A stretch of DNA of 64,000 nt from NCBI GenBank assembly GCA_003208875.1, contig QCUR01000001.1, positions 96,001-160,000 of the forward strand, given 5' to 3'. Positions 11,784 to 18,192 of this stretch are shown here, one piece after another; position 1 is the stretch's first letter, and each line of letters begins with the position of its first letter. A program made the position numbers and the translations under genes. Origin of the DNA: Prochlorococcus sp. AG-679-M23. Lineage in GTDB: Bacteria; Cyanobacteriota; Cyanobacteriia; PCC-6307; Cyanobiaceae. Under the pieces are notes generated by a model. It made no database searches, was not told the DNA's origin, and saw only the letters and a program-made list of their open reading frames with translations.

Positions 11784-11888
11784 AAGTCTGTTATCTTTGT
11801 TATTTGCAGAATCTATCCTAATATTATCTTTGAACGAGACTTATAAACAGTTTCTTTGTTAATTATTTCTTATATTTATCTAAATTAC

Positions 11889-13253
11889 GTGAAGCAAAAT
11901 AATCAAAAGGTAAAGGATAAAAAAATTTCAAAGGTTGCTTTTAGTCACGTTGGCTGTGAGAAAAATCTTGTTGATACTGAACATATGCAAGGGTTATTAG
12001 ATAAGGAGGGATATGAAGTAGGAAATGATATAGGAGATGCGAATGTGGTTGTAGTCAATACTTGTAGTTTTATAGAAACAGCTAGAGAAGAATCTATCAG
12101 GAAAATAATTGAATTTACTGATCAAGGTAAAGATGTAATAGTTGCTGGTTGTATGGCCCAGCATTTCAAAGAAGAACTTTTAGATGAAATACCTGAAATA
12201 AAAGCTTTAGTAGGAACTGGTGATTATCAAAAAATAGCTAAGGTTATCAATCGAGTAGAGAAAGGGGAAATTGTTAATGAAGTTTCAAAAATACCTGAAT
12301 TTATTGCAGATGAAAAAATTCCACGCTTTGTAGATAAAAATAAATATGTTGCTTATCTTCGTATCGCTGAAGGGTGCGATTATAAGTGTGCATTTTGTAT
12401 TATTCCTAAGTTAAGAGGGCCTCAACGCAGTAGAGATATAGAATCTATAGTTTCAGAAGCAAAAAATCTCGCAGCTCAAGGGATTCAAGAAATAATACTA
12501 ATTAGTCAAATTACAACAAATTATGGTCAAGATATTTATGGTAAACCTTCTTTAGCAAGACTATTGAAAGAACTGTCTAAAGTTTCAGTTCCTTGGATAC
12601 GAATTCATTATGCATATCCAACTGGTTTAACTGATGAAGTTATTAAAGCTTTTAAAGATTCAAATAATATTGTTCCCTATTTTGATTTACCTTTGCAACA
12701 CAGTCATCCAGATGTTCTAAAGAGTATGAATAGACCTTGGCAGGCTTCTTTAAATGAATCAATATTGAGTCAAATAAGGGAGCAAATACCATCTGCTGTA
12801 TTAAGAACAAGCTTAATTGTTGGTTTTCCAGGAGAAAATCAAAAACATTTTCAACATCTTTTAGATTTTTTGCATAGGCATGAGTTTGATCATGTTGGCG
12901 TTTTTATTTTTTCTCCGGAGGAAGGAACAAGTGCTTTCGATTTGCCAAATAGGGTACCTTCAGAAGTAGCTGATGCGAGAAAAGATAATATAATATCCAT
13001 TCAACAAAATATTTCTAAGAAAAAAAATCAGTTATATGTGGGTACTACGCTTAAAGTATTAGTAGAAAATATAGCTGAAAATAAAAAATTGATAGGACGT
13101 TCCTTTAACTTCGCTCCTGAAATAGATGGCAATGTTATCTTATCTATTAAAAATAATGAAGATAAAAAAAATTATATCGGTAAATTTGTTGAAGCAAATA
13201 TTTGTTTTGCGGATGAATATGATTTATATGGAGAGGTTATAAAAACTTTATAA
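11889..13253 (+). CDS. rimO: Ribosomal protein S12 methylthiotransferase
   Basis: [30 protein letters not shown] and a TRAM tail; GTG at 11889 is the likely start. Confidence 0.94.
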
Positions 13254-13417: not shown

Positions 13418-13804
13418 TTAATCTTGAATGTAGGGTAATTTTTTGTATAAGCATTCTTCTGCTTTTTGTAACTCTCGTCCTAAATATAAGGCATGATCAA
13501 ATCTAGATATTAGATCATTACGCTTTTCTGTTATTGCTATTCCAATCTCTTTAGCGCTAATTCCTGTGAAGGTCTCATTACAAGTTTTGATTTCTTTTGA
13601 GTCACATTTAATAGGCTCATTAGTTTTTGGATCTATTGCATATCCTTCTTTATTAATAGTATTTAAATAATGTTCTAAGATGATTTGTTTTGTCTCCAAA
13701 TCTATCTTTATAATAAAATATCCATTTGGGTCTAGCTCAATATATCTATTAGATAAATCATTATCTATATCTATTTTTTTTTCAAATATTTTAATAAAAT
13801 CCAT
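13418..13804 (-). CDS. DUF4346-domain protein
   Basis: LDPNGYFII...ISRFDHALYLGRELQKAE...YIQD motif. Confidence 0.85.
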   Translation of the reverse strand: MDFIKIFEKKIDIDNDLSNRYIELDPNGYFIIKIDLETKQIILEHYLNTINKEGYAIDPKTNEPIKCDSKEIKTCNETFTGISAKEIGIAITEKRNDLISRFDHALYLGRELQKAEECLYKKLPYIQD

Positions 13805-13868
13805 CTTCAAATTTTTAATAAAATTATATTATTAATATAAACAATTATCAGATCAAATAATTTCTATT

Positions 13869-15023
13869 TTATTTAAAAGGAATAGAATTATTTTCTAACT
13901 CAATTTCTTTCAAAGTTTGAAAATTAACTTCATTTAACCAAGGGGTAATTATATTTTTCATATTTTTGTTAAACCATTTGTGAAAACTTTTAGCACCTTT
14001 TGCATAAAACCCTCTTCTTCTTTTATGTTTACCTCCTGCTCCAGGATCAAAACTTTCAATGTTATTTTTTATTGCCCACTCAATAGGCTGGTAATAGCAT
14101 AATTCAAAATGTAAGTTAAGTACTTCTTCTTGACTACCCCAATATCTACCCCATATATATTTTTCATTTTTTATACACATTGACATTGCAATCGTACTTT
14201 CAGGATCATTTCTTGATGCACTAAAAAACAATAGATTTCTTTTATTTTCAAGAATGTTTTCAAAAAATTCAGAGGTAAGATATTTGCTACCCCATACTCC
14301 CCATCTCAAACAATGCTGCTCGTAGAAATTATGCATTTTTTGAAGCATTTCTAGATTTATATTCTCCTCTGTATGAATTTTGATCTCGAGGTTTTGTTTT
14401 GTAATTGATTTTCTTTCTTTTTTAATGTTTTTTCTTTGATTAGAATTGAATCTGGATAAAAAATCATCAAATGTCTTTTCCCCATTATTCTTCCATTCAC
14501 TACTTGTATTTATCCATTCCTGATATCCTAAGGATTGGAGATGTTTTCCCCAATCTTCTTTTACATATAAGAAATTGCAACTCAAGATATTATTTTTCAA
14601 AGCAAAGTCATCAATATGTTTTATTAATGAATTTGTAATCTCAATTTTATTTCTATTTTCTTTATATAAAAATTCATATCCATTAATAGGGCTGTAAGGG
14701 CTCATCCCAATGAGCTTAGGATAATAATTTAAATTTAAATCTTGAGCTAATTTTGCAAAGGATTGATCAAAAATAAATTCTCCATAACTATGATTTTTAA
14801 GAAAAAGTGGAGCTATTCCGCATATTTCTTCATTTTCATAAGCAACAAAATATAAAGGTTGCCATCCAGTTTGTCTTGAGACACTTTTCGATAATTCAAG
14901 GTTATAGAGCCAGTCCCATTCGTAAAATGGATTGTTGATTTCTTTTCTTAATTCATTCCATGTTTCTTTATTTATTTCTTGAATTGATAGTTTAATTTCA
15001 ATTTTGTGCTTAATATGATTCAT
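13869..15023 (-). CDS. FemAB-like / GNAT-fold transferase (DUF482-like)
   Basis: HSYGEFIFD, YYPKL, WGRYWG, LHFELCYYQPIEWAI, GAGGKHK. Confidence 0.88.
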   Translation of the reverse strand: MNHIKHKIEIKLSIQEINKETWNELRKEINNPFYEWDWLYNLELSKSVSRQTGWQPLYFVAYENEEICGIAPLFLKNHSYGEFIFDQSFAKLAQDLNLNYYPKLIGMSPYSPINGYEFLYKENRNKIEITNSLIKHIDDFALKNNILSCNFLYVKEDWGKHLQSLGYQEWINTSSEWKNNGEKTFDDFLSRFNSNQRKNIKKERKSITKQNLEIKIHTEENINLEMLQKMHNFYEQHCLRWGVWGSKYLTSEFFENILENKRNLLFFSASRNDPESTIAMSMCIKNEKYIWGRYWGSQEEVLNLHFELCYYQPIEWAIKNNIESFDPGAGGKHKRRRGFYAKGAKSFHKWFNKNMKNIITPWLNEVNFQTLKEIELENNSIPFK

Positions 15024-15035
15024 ATTTTTTTTACT

Positions 15036-15698
15036 TTAATCATCTTTAGTTTTTCTTGTGTAATGAATATATATTTCATTTCTCTCTAATTCTTGAATCG
15101 ATTTTATATTCCAAAATTGCTTTAAATTAAAAATTTTATTTGTTTGTTCAGCAGGTATCCATGTAAATTTCCCTCCAATAATTCTTGGGGCTATTGTAAT
15201 TTTGATTTCATCAATCAAATCTTCTTTTATAAAAGAATTTATAAGATTTGCCCCACCAAGAAGTGCTAGACGATTGATTCCAGCTTTTTTAATACTTAAC
15301 AAGGTTTTACTCCAGGAATTTTTGTAGAAAATTTCTTTATCAAAATCTTTAGTCTCTATTGCATCTTTTTTATTAGAGCTGATTAACCATCTTTTAATTG
15401 GTTGATTGAAATAATTCCAATCTTTTTTAAATTTTTTGCTGTTGGAGGCCACTATAGAAATAGGCTGATTTTTTGAAATTTTTATTTCGCCATTTTTACA
15501 ATGATTTTTTACTAAATATGTACTTTGATGAGCTTTTAGAGTTCCCAATCCAAAAATGGTAGCGTCAACTATTGATAAGTTTTCATCTAACATTCTCCTA
15601 TCTTCCTTACTTCCAAGATGAGATTCACCTCCACTTGGGAAGGCAATCCTTCCATCTAAACTAGAAGCGATAATCATCGCTATGCTTGGAGTATTCAA
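15036..15698 (-). CDS. RibD C-terminal (DHFR-fold) reductase family protein
   Basis: ASSLDGRIA, LLGGANL, LIDEIKITIAPRIIGG; no deaminase domain. Confidence 0.88.
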   Translation of the reverse strand: MNTPSIAMIIASSLDGRIAFPSGGESHLGSKEDRRMLDENLSIVDATIFGLGTLKAHQSTYLVKNHCKNGEIKISKNQPISIVASNSKKFKKDWNYFNQPIKRWLISSNKKDAIETKDFDKEIFYKNSWSKTLLSIKKAGINRLALLGGANLINSFIKEDLIDEIKITIAPRIIGGKFTWIPAEQTNKIFNLKQFWNIKSIQELERNEIYIHYTRKTKDD

Positions 15699-16621
15699 GC
15701 TTGAGCAACTAAAGAGTTAGTAAGATTTCTTTGCAAAGAATTTGGTACACTTTGTTCAACATAAATTTCTGCAGCATTATTTGGGCTCTCTTGAAGTTTT
15801 ATCTTGTGCAGATTTGCTCCAATTTTTTTAATCGGAGATGAGAGAATATCAGCAATGTGTAGTGCAATATTTTCACATGTTGGGACGCAAGTTTTAAAAT
15901 ATTCGATATCTTTGTTTAAGAAAGTATGATCAAAAGGTTCAACTATAAGATCATCAATAATTGCTTGTAATGAAGGTAAATCACATATCATCCCAGTTCT
16001 TGGATCAATTTTTCCTCGGACAGTTACATCGAGAAAATAATTATGTCCATGTCCATTTATTCTGGCACATTTCCCATAAATCTTCTTGTTTTCATCAAGA
16101 GAAATCTCATCTTTTGCTAATCGGTGAGCAGCATTAAAATGACTTTGAATTGTTAATAAAGCTTCCATGTTTTTTCCGTAGTAATCTGCCCATAAAGTTG
16201 GGCTTTCATAAAGTCTTAAACTTGTAAGAGGTAGTTCATCTTTTAAACGATTCCAGATAACTTTAACTAAAGCCTCAGTCGTTGGAAGAATGCCTTCTTG
16301 ACTATGAATATTAAATTCAGGCCATACGTCATTTAAAAAACGAAAATCTAATTGTCCAGTGACCTTATTCTTAATAGAATGTTTTACATCAGAAAGATTA
16401 AGGACCATTCCATCCGAGTCAAGTTTGCCCCCCATTGATACGATAAGTTCGTAATTATGGCCATGTCCTGGAGCTATACTACATTTCCCAAAAAGTGAGA
16501 AATTATCTTCTGAGCTTTTTTCAGGAAGCCAATAACGATGACTCGAACTAAAACAGGCACGTCGAGTTATGACGCATTCACGTCCCTGGCCATGTAATGG
16601 TTTGGTATGTGTAAAAGTCAT
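15695..16621 (-). CDS. Dual-domain 6-pyruvoyl-tetrahydropterin synthase family (PTPS/QueD fold)
   Basis: Two T-fold repeats, each with SxHR/AAHR, Cx5HGHNY, PTxE and ESP motifs. Confidence 0.92.
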   Translation of the reverse strand: MTFTHTKPLHGQGRECVITRRACFSSSHRYWLPEKSSEDNFSLFGKCSIAPGHGHNYELIVSMGGKLDSDGMVLNLSDVKHSIKNKVTGQLDFRFLNDVWPEFNIHSQEGILPTTEALVKVIWNRLKDELPLTSLRLYESPTLWADYYGKNMEALLTIQSHFNAAHRLAKDEISLDENKKIYGKCARINGHGHNYFLDVTVRGKIDPRTGMICDLPSLQAIIDDLIVEPFDHTFLNKDIEYFKTCVPTCENIALHIADILSSPIKKIGANLHKIKLQESPNNAAEIYVEQSVPNSLQRNLTNSLVAQA

Positions 16622-16671
16622 AAATGTCTGTAATAATACTATCTTAAGGTTTTATATACTCTTTTGTCTGT

Positions 16672-17229
16672 ATGGAAAAATCTATTATTGAGAAAACAAA
16701 CAAAATAATTAAAGGAAGAAGTATATATTTGATAGGTATGATGGCTAGTGGTAAATCTAAAACTGGTCCAGTATTAGCCGAGTTATTGAGGTATAAGTAT
16801 ATTGACCTGGATAAATTAATAGAGAATATAGCAAAAAAAACAATTAATGAAATGTTCCAGGAAGATGGAGAAAAAGCATTCCGAGAACTAGAAACAAATT
16901 GCTTAAAAGAAACAATTAAAATCCCTTCTTTAATCGTTTCTACTGGTGGAGGAATTATTTCTAAACCAGAAAACTGGGGTGTTTTAAGGCAAGGAATTAT
17001 TATTTGGATTGATACAAAGCAAGAGATTGCTCTTGAGAGGTTGAAAAAAGATATTGACAATAGACCTCTTTTACAGGGAAAAGATTTAAGTGATTTATAT
17101 AACCAAATTTTTCAATCTAGAAAAAAATTATATTCTCAGGCTGACTTAAGAGTTGAGGTTAATAAAGAAGATGTTGATGAAGTTGCAAAACAAATAGTTT
17201 ATGGAATTTACAAAAAAATTATAAATTAA
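16672..17229 (+). CDS. aroK: Shikimate kinase
   Basis: GMMASGKS, DLD, GEKAFRELE, STGGG, RPLL. Confidence 0.95.
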   Translation: MEKSIIEKTNKIIKGRSIYLIGMMASGKSKTGPVLAELLRYKYIDLDKLIENIAKKTINEMFQEDGEKAFRELETNCLKETIKIPSLIVSTGGGIISKPENWGVLRQGIIIWIDTKQEIALERLKKDIDNRPLLQGKDLSDLYNQIFQSRKKLYSQADLRVEVNKEDVDEVAKQIVYGIYKKIIN

Positions 17230-17483
17230 TCAGGTTCTACTCTCACAGCAAACCATTTAATAACGAATCCAAATTTTATTTCTAATTCATAAGTACTTTC
17301 TAACAATTCTTCGAGAAATTCCTCATTGGAATAATCTTTTTTTTGATATATAGTTGATGAATCAACCTTATGAAGCCAATTTTTTAACCATAATATTGCT
17401 TCTTTTTTAGTTACTATTTTTTCTTTTGAATCTGGCTCTAACAATACAAAATGGTCTTCAGATCTTATTAATGGATTAGACAT
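17226..17483 (-). CDS. crr7: Chlororespiratory reduction protein 7 (NDH-1 assembly factor)
   Basis: DHFVLLEP...ELEI...WFAVR motif. Confidence 0.8.
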   Translation of the reverse strand: MSNPLIRSEDHFVLLEPDSKEKIVTKKEAILWLKNWLHKVDSSTIYQKKDYSNEEFLEELLESTYELEIKFGFVIKWFAVRVEPD

Positions 17484-18192
17484 GATTAAAAATTTTTTAG
17501 GATTAATTATTTTTCTAATTATTCAAGTAATTTCTTTAGATAATGCATTTGCTTTCAATGATCATAATGTAAAAGAATTTTTAGATGAAAGAGAAAATTT
17601 ATGGCCAGAACTATACTTACCAAATTTTAAATTTTCAAATACTTCGAGAGATTTAATTTATCCTAATTGGTTTGAGGGTAATTGGCTTGTTACTTCTCAA
17701 GATTTAGAAGATGAGTCTCAAGCACCAGTGATTTACAAAGTAAATTTTTTCAAAAATAATTTAAATGAAGTTATTGGTAATCGATCAAAAAATTCTGAGT
17801 CAATTGGTAAAGCGATATTTGGTGATACTTTGATTAAAGTTGTTAATGATCCTAAATCAATTAATAAACAAATTACTTATTTAAAAGATGATTTATATAT
17901 TGATTCAAGGATCACAGGAAGAAATCAAATTCAAGATGATGATATGTTTTTTGCTGACGAATTAGTTATTCAAACTCTTCATAAACCAGGAGCATCTAGG
18001 GTTAATCAGGTCGAGACAATTAGTAAATTTCAAAAATGTAATCGTCATAATTCCAATGCAGAGAATACTTTAAAACCTAATATCTGCGGTTTTCAATATA
18101 TTGCTACATACGGTTCAAAAGTTGGAGATCCCTCAGTGCATGCAATTAAAACTAGTAAATTTAAATTATCGTTTGAATTTATTGAGAATTAG
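17482..18192 (+). CDS. Conserved exported hypothetical protein
   Basis: Signal peptide ending in AFA; DLIYPNWFEGNW motif. Confidence 0.75.
   Translation: MIKNFLGLIIFLIIQVISLDNAFAFNDHNVKEFLDERENLWPELYLPNFKFSNTSRDLIYPNWFEGNWLVTSQDLEDESQAPVIYKVNFFKNNLNEVIGNRSKNSESIGKAIFGDTLIKVVNDPKSINKQITYLKDDLYIDSRITGRNQIQDDDMFFADELVIQTLHKPGASRVNQVETISKFQKCNRHNSNAENTLKPNICGFQYIATYGSKVGDPSVHAIKTSKFKLSFEFIEN

Follow-up and report, generated by a model that had tools for sequence, protein, structure and literature searches.

The window analysed here is a 64,000-nucleotide stretch of the genome of Prochlorococcus sp. AG-679-M23 (contig QCUR01000001.1, forward-strand positions 96,001 to 160,000; G000:C1:96001-160000 in our own numbering, in which G, L, g and f stand for genomes, loci, genera and families), a 1.65-Mb genome with approximately 30% G+C that is 99.99% complete. 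Its minus strand carries four consecutive genes, which encode a tandem 6-pyruvoyl-tetrahydropterin synthase of type II (PTPS-II), a stand-alone reductase of the RibD_C family (hereafter the paralog), a FemAB_like protein and a small DUF4346 protein. We propose, with a probability of approximately 0.5, that these genes form a conserved cyanobacterial group concerned with reduced pteridines, in which the paralog is predicted to be a stand-in of the dihydrofolate reductase (DHFR) type for the absent FolA.

The initial annotation, made from the letters of the window alone, had described four co-oriented genes, and comparison with the list of open reading frames shows that this description is correct in every detail, spacings included. 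Its four family assignments also hold, with all Pfam matches far above their cut-offs. The PTPS and RibD_C frames overlap by 4 bp (TTGA, in which the TTG start lies over the TGA stop), and an in-frame ATG 21 nt downstream of the TTG offers an alternative start for RibD_C. A gap of 12 bp follows between RibD_C and FemAB_like, and the gap between FemAB_like and DUF4346 is 58 bp as listed, or 64 bp when counted from the ATG at 13804, which is likely the true start of the DUF4346 gene according to the orthologue alignment and the sequence. Spacing by itself is a weak argument in such a compact genome; it is the conservation of the order in other families that lifts the arrangement above chance.

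Table 1. Features of the four-gene locus and of its surroundings in the window, with two fusion genes from other cyanobacterial loci
Feature	Coordinates	Strand	Basis, prediction or position
Tandem PTPS-II (two-domain 6-pyruvoyl-tetrahydropterin synthase), 308 aa	15695..16621	-	PF01242 x2, C-x5-HGH, PDB ranking
Stand-alone RibD_C (DHFR-fold) reductase paralog, 220 aa	15036..15698	-	PF01872; predicted NADPH-dependent dihydrofolate/dihydropterin reductase
FemAB_like (COG3146) tandem-GNAT protein, 384 aa	13869..15023	-	PF04339, AF2/Foldseek; predicted acyl or aminoacyl transferase
PterinBD-DUF4346 small protein, 130 aa as listed	13418..13810	-	PF14251; predicted pterin/folate-binding partner
RimO	11856-13253	+	bounds the cluster
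Shikimate kinase	16672-17229	+	bounds the cluster
CRR7-like gene (named for plant CHLORORESPIRATORY REDUCTION 7)	17226-17483	-	PF12095; beyond shikimate kinase
DUF6816 protein	17482-18192	+	beyond shikimate kinase
ThyA-like-DUF4346 fusion	L053:7749-9242	+	
ThyA-like-DUF4346 fusion	L054:6185-7708	-	

The RibD_C paralog and the missing FolA

The paralog matches PF01872 at 101.8 bits (cut-off 24.1; E 5.7e-29) over profile positions 1-187 of 197. Its scores stay below the cut-offs of the riboflavin families, reaching 87.8 of 150.15 bits for TIGR00227, 78.4 of 186.45 bits for TIGR01508 and 63.4 of 156.35 bits for TIGR00326. A complete RibD is encoded elsewhere in the window genome (at G000:C6) and also in its relatives, and a role of the paralog as the riboflavin reductase was rejected because this full enzyme exists. 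The named orthologues of the paralog are all cyanobacterial, and their labels read 'RibD family protein', 'riboflavin deaminase' or 'uracil reductase'. The paralog does not match PF00186 (DHFR_1), which means that its resemblance to FolA would be one of function and not of family membership. A FolA of the PF00186 family was not found in the window genome even at E<=1; of the thymidylate synthases, ThyX is present, and ThyA was searched for and not found.

The synthesis of tetrahydrofolate without FolA in Prochlorococcus and most cyanobacteria has been a pathway hole for about two decades (PMC1971073, 2007). In the available part of that survey (De Crécy-Lagard et al. 2007), FolA, FolM and Dhfr2 of Prochlorococcus marinus are all entered as '?', with the gene yet unidentified, and organisms with ThyX are stated still to require some DHFR activity. 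According to the accessible portions of two other sources, folA is absent in Nostoc and Synechocystis (Myllykallio 2003, as cited in PMC4531292), tested cyanobacteria are not susceptible to trimethoprim (PMC4531292), and COG4319 from Nostoc was tried as a DHFR candidate and failed (Gerdes et al. 2011, PMC3223725). In the open full-text literature, we found no paper that names the RibD_C paralog as the cyanobacterial DHFR; subscription journals lay outside this search. As a separate observation, Synechococcus elongatus gave a DHFR_1 match at E<=0.001 and none at E<=1e-15, and it thus seems to be without a canonical FolA and to have only a weak DHFR_1-like match.

The distribution of FolA and of the paralog was compared in two samples. 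The first was drawn from a sample of 201 genomes of the phylum (86 of the class Cyanobacteriia and 115 of other classes) and comprised 80 of the 86 Cyanobacteriia genomes, six genomes of one genus being left out. A strong FolA match was present in 10 of the 80, and the paralog was not found in 7, with an eighth genome containing only a 105-aa remnant. In the resulting table, FolA occurs without the paralog in 5 genomes and with it in 5, neither is present in 3, and the paralog occurs without FolA in 67 (Fisher p = 5e-4, a value that is overstated, as relatives are not independent). The five genomes that are without an intact paralog and have the tandem PTPS all have FolA. The second sample comprised 401 Cyanobacteriia genomes; 55 of them gave a FolA match, and the 46 genomes of f1, the picocyanobacteria, gave none. 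From the FolA-bearing genomes, 48 that were new were searched in turn, bringing the Cyanobacteriia total to 134: the paralog was present in 9 (>180 bits, frames of 227-340 aa), and of the remaining 39, 34 matched the true RibD only (40-91 bits, frames of 297-470 aa) and 5 matched nothing at E<=1e-8. In the union of the samples, the paralog is absent in 44 of 58 FolA-bearing genomes (the 44 belong to 12 families), versus 3 of 70 FolA-less genomes; it is present in the other 67 of the 70.

The switch can also be seen at close range. Within genus g33, one genome (G101) has the paralog and no FolA, and another (G143) has FolA and no intact paralog. When the paralog of a neighbour was used as a tblastn query, broken remnants were found directly upstream of FemAB_like in three of the four f7 genomes that have FolA and lack an intact paralog. 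In G143, the remnant consists of three pieces with a stop codon and a deletion; in G041, it is truncated to residues 18-118; and in G020, it contains four stops. In the fourth genome, G071, tblastn gave no remnant. Such a distribution, together with the remnants, reads as the usual signature of non-orthologous displacement, and it points to a paralog that would do the job of FolA. The suggestion in the initial annotation that the RibD-like enzyme might replace DHFR has therefore become a good candidate assignment: on this comparative evidence, the paralog is likely the missing DHFR of Prochlorococcus and most cyanobacteria, for which it is a well-supported predicted candidate.

PTPS and the conserved gene order

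The PTPS of the window matches PF01242 in two stretches (204.3 bits, cut-off 22.4, E 5.8e-61) and TIGR00039 at 143.2 bits (cut-off 125.5). Both domains carry the CxxxxxHGH signature, as CSIAPGHGH and CARINGHGH; by the published motif key, this form denotes PTPS-II, CxxxHGH denotes QueD, and ExxHGH denotes PTPS-III (PMC5041015, available part). The C-terminal domain matches the human enzyme (3i2b) at E 8.7e-30 and the rat enzyme (1b66) at 3.5e-29, as against 5e-8 for QueD (4ntm), and the alignment to the human and rat enzymes covers the Cys, the HGH and the Asp-His pair. Assignment to QueD or to PTPS-III was ruled out by the motif and the PDB ranking. By its sequence, the window PTPS is an ordinary member of the known mammalian-type PTPS-II, for which product formation is predicted. 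A second, single-domain PTPS and QueC are encoded elsewhere in the genome, which implies that queuosine synthesis is served there, and FolB was found in the window genome, so that a PTPS-III role is not needed. The PTPS-II of Synechococcus sp. PCC 7942 is reportedly the dual-domain form described by Kong et al. in 2006. Canonical PTPS activity is documented for that paralog (PMC5041015, available part). The window protein resembles it in having two PTPS domains and the CxxxxxHGH motif and in being nearer to mammalian PTPS than to QueD; it differs only in its operon-like position with the RibD_C paralog, which is special to picocyanobacteria. The tandem PTPS occurs in 73 of the 80 Cyanobacteriia genomes at 53-70% identity. 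In ten f7 genomes (G020, G026, G041, G065, G071, G086, G107, G121, G147 and G151), the PTPS frames measure 426-439 aa, and the second domain of the query matches twice, so that these proteins are apparently three-domain PTPS enzymes.

DUF4346 (PF14251) is present in 86/86 genomes of the survey and in 48/48 of the additional ones, that is, in 134/134 Cyanobacteriia, and in 0/115 genomes of the other classes of the phylum. FemAB_like (PF04339) is likewise present in 86/86 and 48/48 (134/134) and scores above its cut-off in 2/115 of the others. Both are retained in every genome without PTPS or the paralog, including all 7 in which the tandem PTPS was not found; in four of these, namely three f19 genomes and G044, the paralog is present alongside the two.

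Gene order was compared at 40 FemAB_like loci, which were picked to span 20 families and are thus not a random sample. The full order PTPS>RibD_C>FemAB_like>DUF4346 occurs at 5 of the 40, in addition to the window, and all of these belong to f1. The order RibD_C>FemAB_like>DUF4346 occurs at 4 loci (f2 and f7; RibD_C is truncated in one), RibD_C>FemAB_like alone at 12 (f2, f3, f5, f6, f7, f8, f9, f11 and f12) and FemAB_like>DUF4346 alone at 4 (f7), and at 15 loci FemAB_like stands without either partner. RibD_C is therefore immediately upstream of FemAB_like at 21 of the 40 loci and DUF4346 immediately downstream at 13, and order and strand are invariant across all linked loci. By coordinates, FemAB_like>DUF4346 also adjoin in nine f15 genomes without the paralog and in one f6 genome. 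At all 35 fetched loci outside f1, PTPS lies away from the cluster, and the 4-bp overlap of PTPS and RibD_C recurs at 4 of the 6 f1 loci, the window included. The conserved core is RibD_C>FemAB_like>DUF4346, to which PTPS is a picocyanobacterial addition, and FemAB_like is the hub of two recurrent links. Of the four-gene group first described in the window, the three-gene core is thus conserved across families, and PTPS joins it in f1 only.

Two further features of these loci were seen. The RibD_C>FemAB_like pair is present in a 2.8-Mb relative (G053, locus L044). In many non-picocyanobacterial genomes, a membrane histidine kinase of approximately 640-720 aa (Cache/HAMP/HisKA/HATPase_c) diverges from RibD_C>FemAB_like (L018, L019, L020, L026-L030, L032, L033, L035, L038 and L043); this may be plain synteny or a regulator.

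The FemAB_like and DUF4346 proteins

FemAB_like matches PF04339 over profile positions 1-368 of 369 (415 bits, cut-off 27, E 3.8e-124), and its AlphaFold2 (AF2) model has a mean confidence (pLDDT) of 92.5. The best Foldseek match of this model is Weissella FemX (E 1.5e-12, TM ~0.5), with the FemX entries 1xf8 and 7z6a ranking first at E ~1.6e-12, followed by the aminoacyl-tRNA-dependent peptide synthases Sbb17/Sba18, FemA and aminoacyl-phosphatidylglycerol synthases; acetyl-CoA-dependent tandem GNATs (2wpw, VipF and Eis2) match almost as well. At the sequence level, a search of PDB sequences gave no relative and only a chance antibody match, and the score against the FemX equivalog NF047883 is 20.8 bits, with a cut-off of 500. 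The model of FemAB_like thus shows a FemX-like tandem-GNAT fold, and a transferase of acyl or aminoacyl groups is predicted. The protein has this fold in common with FemX/FemA, Sbb17/Sba18 and the aminoacyl-phosphatidylglycerol synthases (Foldseek E 1.5e-12 to 1e-7), but its identity to them is only 8-13%, and its spread through all cyanobacteria, some proteobacteria and plants gives no hint of a peptidoglycan bridge.

The initial annotation considered the pathway a candidate undescribed one, which is not wholly the case, as a pterin suspicion for COG3146 had already been filed in 2011. In the available part of that source, COG3146/At2g23390 is predicted to be a 'pterin-dependent enzyme' (Gerdes et al. 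2011, PMC3223725, case 21), and the supplement row assigns it to the SEED subsystems 'Pterin metabolism' and 'Pterin metabolism 3'. The family and the suspected pterin link are the same as here; the difference is that the available portion of PMC3223725 draws no link to the RibD_C paralog, FolA or DUF4346. FemAB_like also occurs in proteobacteria and plants without DUF4346, and it is adjoined by RidA in Sphingomonas and by NadE in Ralstonia.

The DUF4346 protein matches all 86 positions of PF14251 (85.5 bits, cut-off 29.6, E 4.4e-24), and its AF2 model has a pLDDT of 88.8. The highest Z from a wide VIA-align search was 6.0, for ribosomal and PH-like small domains, which lies under a meaningful level, so that no fold is assigned and none is claimed to be new; in the ESM Atlas only DUF4346 clusters were found; and the open full-text literature yielded no paper on 'DUF4346', subscription journals being outside that search. 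Its partial NCBIfam matches are to NF002128 (MtrA-like) and TIGR00284 (dihydropteroate-synthase-like), in agreement with the fusions to proteins of these two kinds that the initial annotation had mentioned. In many cyanobacteria, a protein of approximately 500 aa ends in a second copy of the domain and also contains part of a thymidylate-synthase domain (PF00303); second PF14251 matches occur in approximately 37 of the 86 Cyanobacteriia genomes. Next to the fusion gene, one genome has the genes for thymidylate kinase (tmk) and dCMP deaminase, and another has those for dUTPase and a dCTP-deaminase-like protein. The connection of DUF4346 with pterin- and folate-using enzymes claimed at the outset is thus borne out by the ThyA-like fusion and the two partial matches, and DUF4346 is predicted from these ties to be a pterin/folate-binding partner.

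Approximately 270 N-terminal residues of the ThyA-like-DUF4346 fusion are without a Pfam match. In genus g13, the two genomes with both the paralog and the tandem PTPS encode the fusion, and the three genomes with neither do not. Four longer metagenomic DUF4346 homologues have second domains that are mutually unrelated (PF00905, PF01227, PF02463 and PF07298/PF07690); they are probably merged gene calls and were not used. One metagenomic protein of 229 aa (P0002) is recorded with PF14251 as well as PF01227 (GTP cyclohydrolase I) and shares 67% identity with the window DUF4346 across 62% of its length. Two complete domains would not fit into it, so that it may stem from merged gene calls; should it be genuine, it would add another tie to pterins. 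At the 24 loci where DUF4346 stands apart from FemAB_like, no neighbour recurs except a convergent TPM-domain gene, which we read as synteny. In several families, this gene (PF04536, approximately 225-256 aa) and the small DUF4346 gene are arranged tail-to-tail, with or without an adjacent FemAB_like (L026, L028-L032, L034, L061, L062, L068-L070, L072 and L075).

A reduced-pteridine group and its alternatives

Based on the results presented above, the paralog would reduce 7,8-dihydrofolate, supplied by FolC, to tetrahydrofolate using NADPH. It would probably also reduce 7,8-dihydropterins and thereby hold the biopterin-type pterins derived from PTPS in the tetrahydro state, and this second reaction would explain the translational coupling of the paralog to PTPS in picocyanobacteria (f1). 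The contribution of the other two proteins is more speculative: FemAB_like may transfer an acyl or aminoacyl group, with a reduced pterin or folate as substrate or cofactor, and the small DUF4346 protein may bind the reduced pterin or folate and present it. A connection of the linked FemAB_like and DUF4346 pair with reduced pteridines is probable. The wider idea that all oxygenic cyanobacteria share an unrecognised reduced-pteridine system, in which the FemX-like tandem-GNAT enzyme is helped by DUF4346 as a dedicated small pterin/folate-binding protein whose fold has no clear solved relative, is unlikely on present evidence. In such a system, the enzyme would use aminoacyl-tRNA or acyl-CoA to modify a tetrahydropterin or tetrahydrofolate, or would depend on that molecule, and a DHFR analogue derived from RibD would keep the molecule reduced; if this were true, the most abundant phototrophs on Earth would contain either a novel cofactor derivative or pterin-dependent transferases of a novel class.

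The closest precedent for the reductase is Rv2671 of Mycobacterium tuberculosis, a protein consisting of RibD_C only that reportedly has DHFR activity. Structures of Rv2671 (4xrb and others) are among the PDB matches of the paralog. The two proteins agree in being a stand-alone PF01872 domain with the DHFR fold, in occurring beside a separate true RibD and in the proposed reduction of dihydrofolate; however, their similarity is weak (E 3e-5 over ~40 residues), and the paralog is a cyanobacteria-specific orthologous group. Furthermore, the mycobacterial protein backs up a FolA that is present, whereas in FolA-less cyanobacterial cells the housekeeping role would fall to the paralog. Compared to FolA, to the short-chain dehydrogenase/reductases (SDR) of the FolM/PTR1 type and to the flavin-dependent, FolP-fused reductase of Helicobacter, the predicted reaction and the role in ThyX organisms are the same (PMC1971073, available part); the paralog belongs neither to PF00186 nor to the SDR family, and its fold is common with FolA at the superfamily level only.

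Several observations weigh against the assignment of the group to reduced pteridines and of the paralog to DHFR. The best PDB matches of the paralog are archaeal and fungal pyrimidine reductases (E 3e-8 to 1e-6), ahead of Rv2671 (3e-5) and the Thermotoga DHFR (8.5e-5). According to the available part of PMC1971073, the SEED curators were aware of PF01872 look-alikes and still listed Prochlorococcus without DHFR. The paralog is retained in 14 of the 58 FolA-bearing genomes and is thus not simply redundant with FolA, and the clustering of the FolA-bearing genomes in certain families makes the complementarity partly phylogenetic. Three g13 genomes (G105, G129 and G167) are without FolA, the paralog and the tandem PTPS and still keep FolP, which implies that at least one further reductase must exist; two of them have another RibD_C-type gene of 191 to 193 aa, and G167 has none. 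The joint loss of the paralog and PTPS in these genomes fits a role confined to pterins equally well. For FemAB_like, the available part of PMC3223725 marks the pterin prediction as invalidated, the Xanthomonas protein being without benzoate hydroxylase activity, and this sole published test is negative. Six proteobacterial FemAB_like loci from a plasmid collection have no pterin or folate neighbours; the same was found at the locus of one non-photosynthetic relative. As to DUF4346, neither a PDB sequence search (none below E 1) nor Foldseek against the PDB (none at E<=0.001) gave a solved relative.

The initial annotation had combined the four genes into a single pathway that makes, reduces and decorates a pterin: PTPS would form 6-pyruvoyl-tetrahydropterin, the RibD_C enzyme would reduce it in place of sepiapterin reductase, FemAB_like would acylate or aminoacylate the product, and DUF4346 would carry it. 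The four genes are indeed contiguous and co-oriented in the window and in 5/5 other f1 genomes fetched, with the overlap already described, the synthase is a true PTPS-II, the three g13 genomes have lost its tandem form together with the paralog, and the fold of FemAB_like is that of enzymes which add amino acids to small molecules (Sbb17/Sba18). On the other hand, among the families sampled PTPS is part of the cluster only in f1, the f19 genomes and G044 have the other three genes without it, and FemAB_like and DUF4346 persist wherever PTPS or the paralog is missing. The chemistry is also at odds with such a scheme. The product of PTPS is already a tetrahydropterin, whose side chain requires carbonyl reduction, whereas the exchange with FolA points to reduction of a C=N bond (dihydropteridine), and a DHFR-fold stand-in for sepiapterin reductase would be unusual. 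Furthermore, we know of no acylated or aminoacylated pterin from cyanobacteria, the known conjugates being glycosides. A single pathway is therefore possible but rather doubtful, and weaker than the assignment of the paralog to DHFR.

It is also conceivable that the paralog reduces a pyrimidine nucleotide, either of the riboflavin type or another ribosylaminopyrimidine, without any role in folate, and that phylogeny brought about the complementary distribution of the paralog and FolA as a side effect. This would agree with its best PDB and NCBIfam similarity, which is to 2,5-diamino-6-ribosylamino-4(3H)-pyrimidinone 5'-phosphate reductases, with orthologue records that read 'RibD family protein' or '5-amino-6-(5-phosphoribosylamino)uracil reductase', and with the 14 genomes that keep both FolA and the paralog and the 3 that lack both. 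The complete RibD elsewhere in the window genome and its relatives, the distance of the paralog from the riboflavin equivalog cut-offs and its linkage to PTPS and DUF4346 argue against this, as does pseudogenisation that is specific to FolA-bearing genomes and includes a switch within one genus, and we regard a pyrimidine reductase as unlikely. Still less probable is that the four genes are unrelated neighbours held together by genome compaction and old synteny. The genome is certainly very compact, FemAB_like stands without either partner at 15 of the 40 loci and occurs in proteobacteria and plants without DUF4346, and the histidine kinase and the TPM-domain protein look like plain synteny; but RibD_C>FemAB_like is found with unchanged order and strand in at least 10 families and FemAB_like>DUF4346 in at least 5, overlapping or near-overlapping frames recur in f1, and three of the four families are independently related to pteridines.

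If the paralog is the DHFR-type stand-in for FolA, its annotations as 'riboflavin deaminase/reductase' would be corrected, a gap would be closed in the metabolic models of the main primary producers of the ocean, and the natural insensitivity of cyanobacteria to trimethoprim would be explained. In addition, the linkage of COG3146 with DUF4346 and the probable pterin/folate connection of the two narrow the search for their function.

Contigs from RNA libraries were examined over the locus; they may include DNA, and their depth cannot rank genes. Contigs from three studies (X1, X10 and X11) bridge the PTPS/RibD_C junction, and one contig (X6) bridges the FemAB_like/DUF4346 junction; this is weak evidence and does not prove a single transcript. 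Most of FemAB_like and RibD_C is without contig cover, and this is not evidence of silence. Promoter scans scored at or near the level of shuffled sequence, and terminator-like sites fell within genes, so that neither is informative. Over PTPS (window positions 15700-16650), the summed contig depth reaches thousands in four runs, compared to tens on the flanks, with a peak at 16342-16495. Conservation among strains may inflate this depth; the alternatives are high expression or a small RNA.

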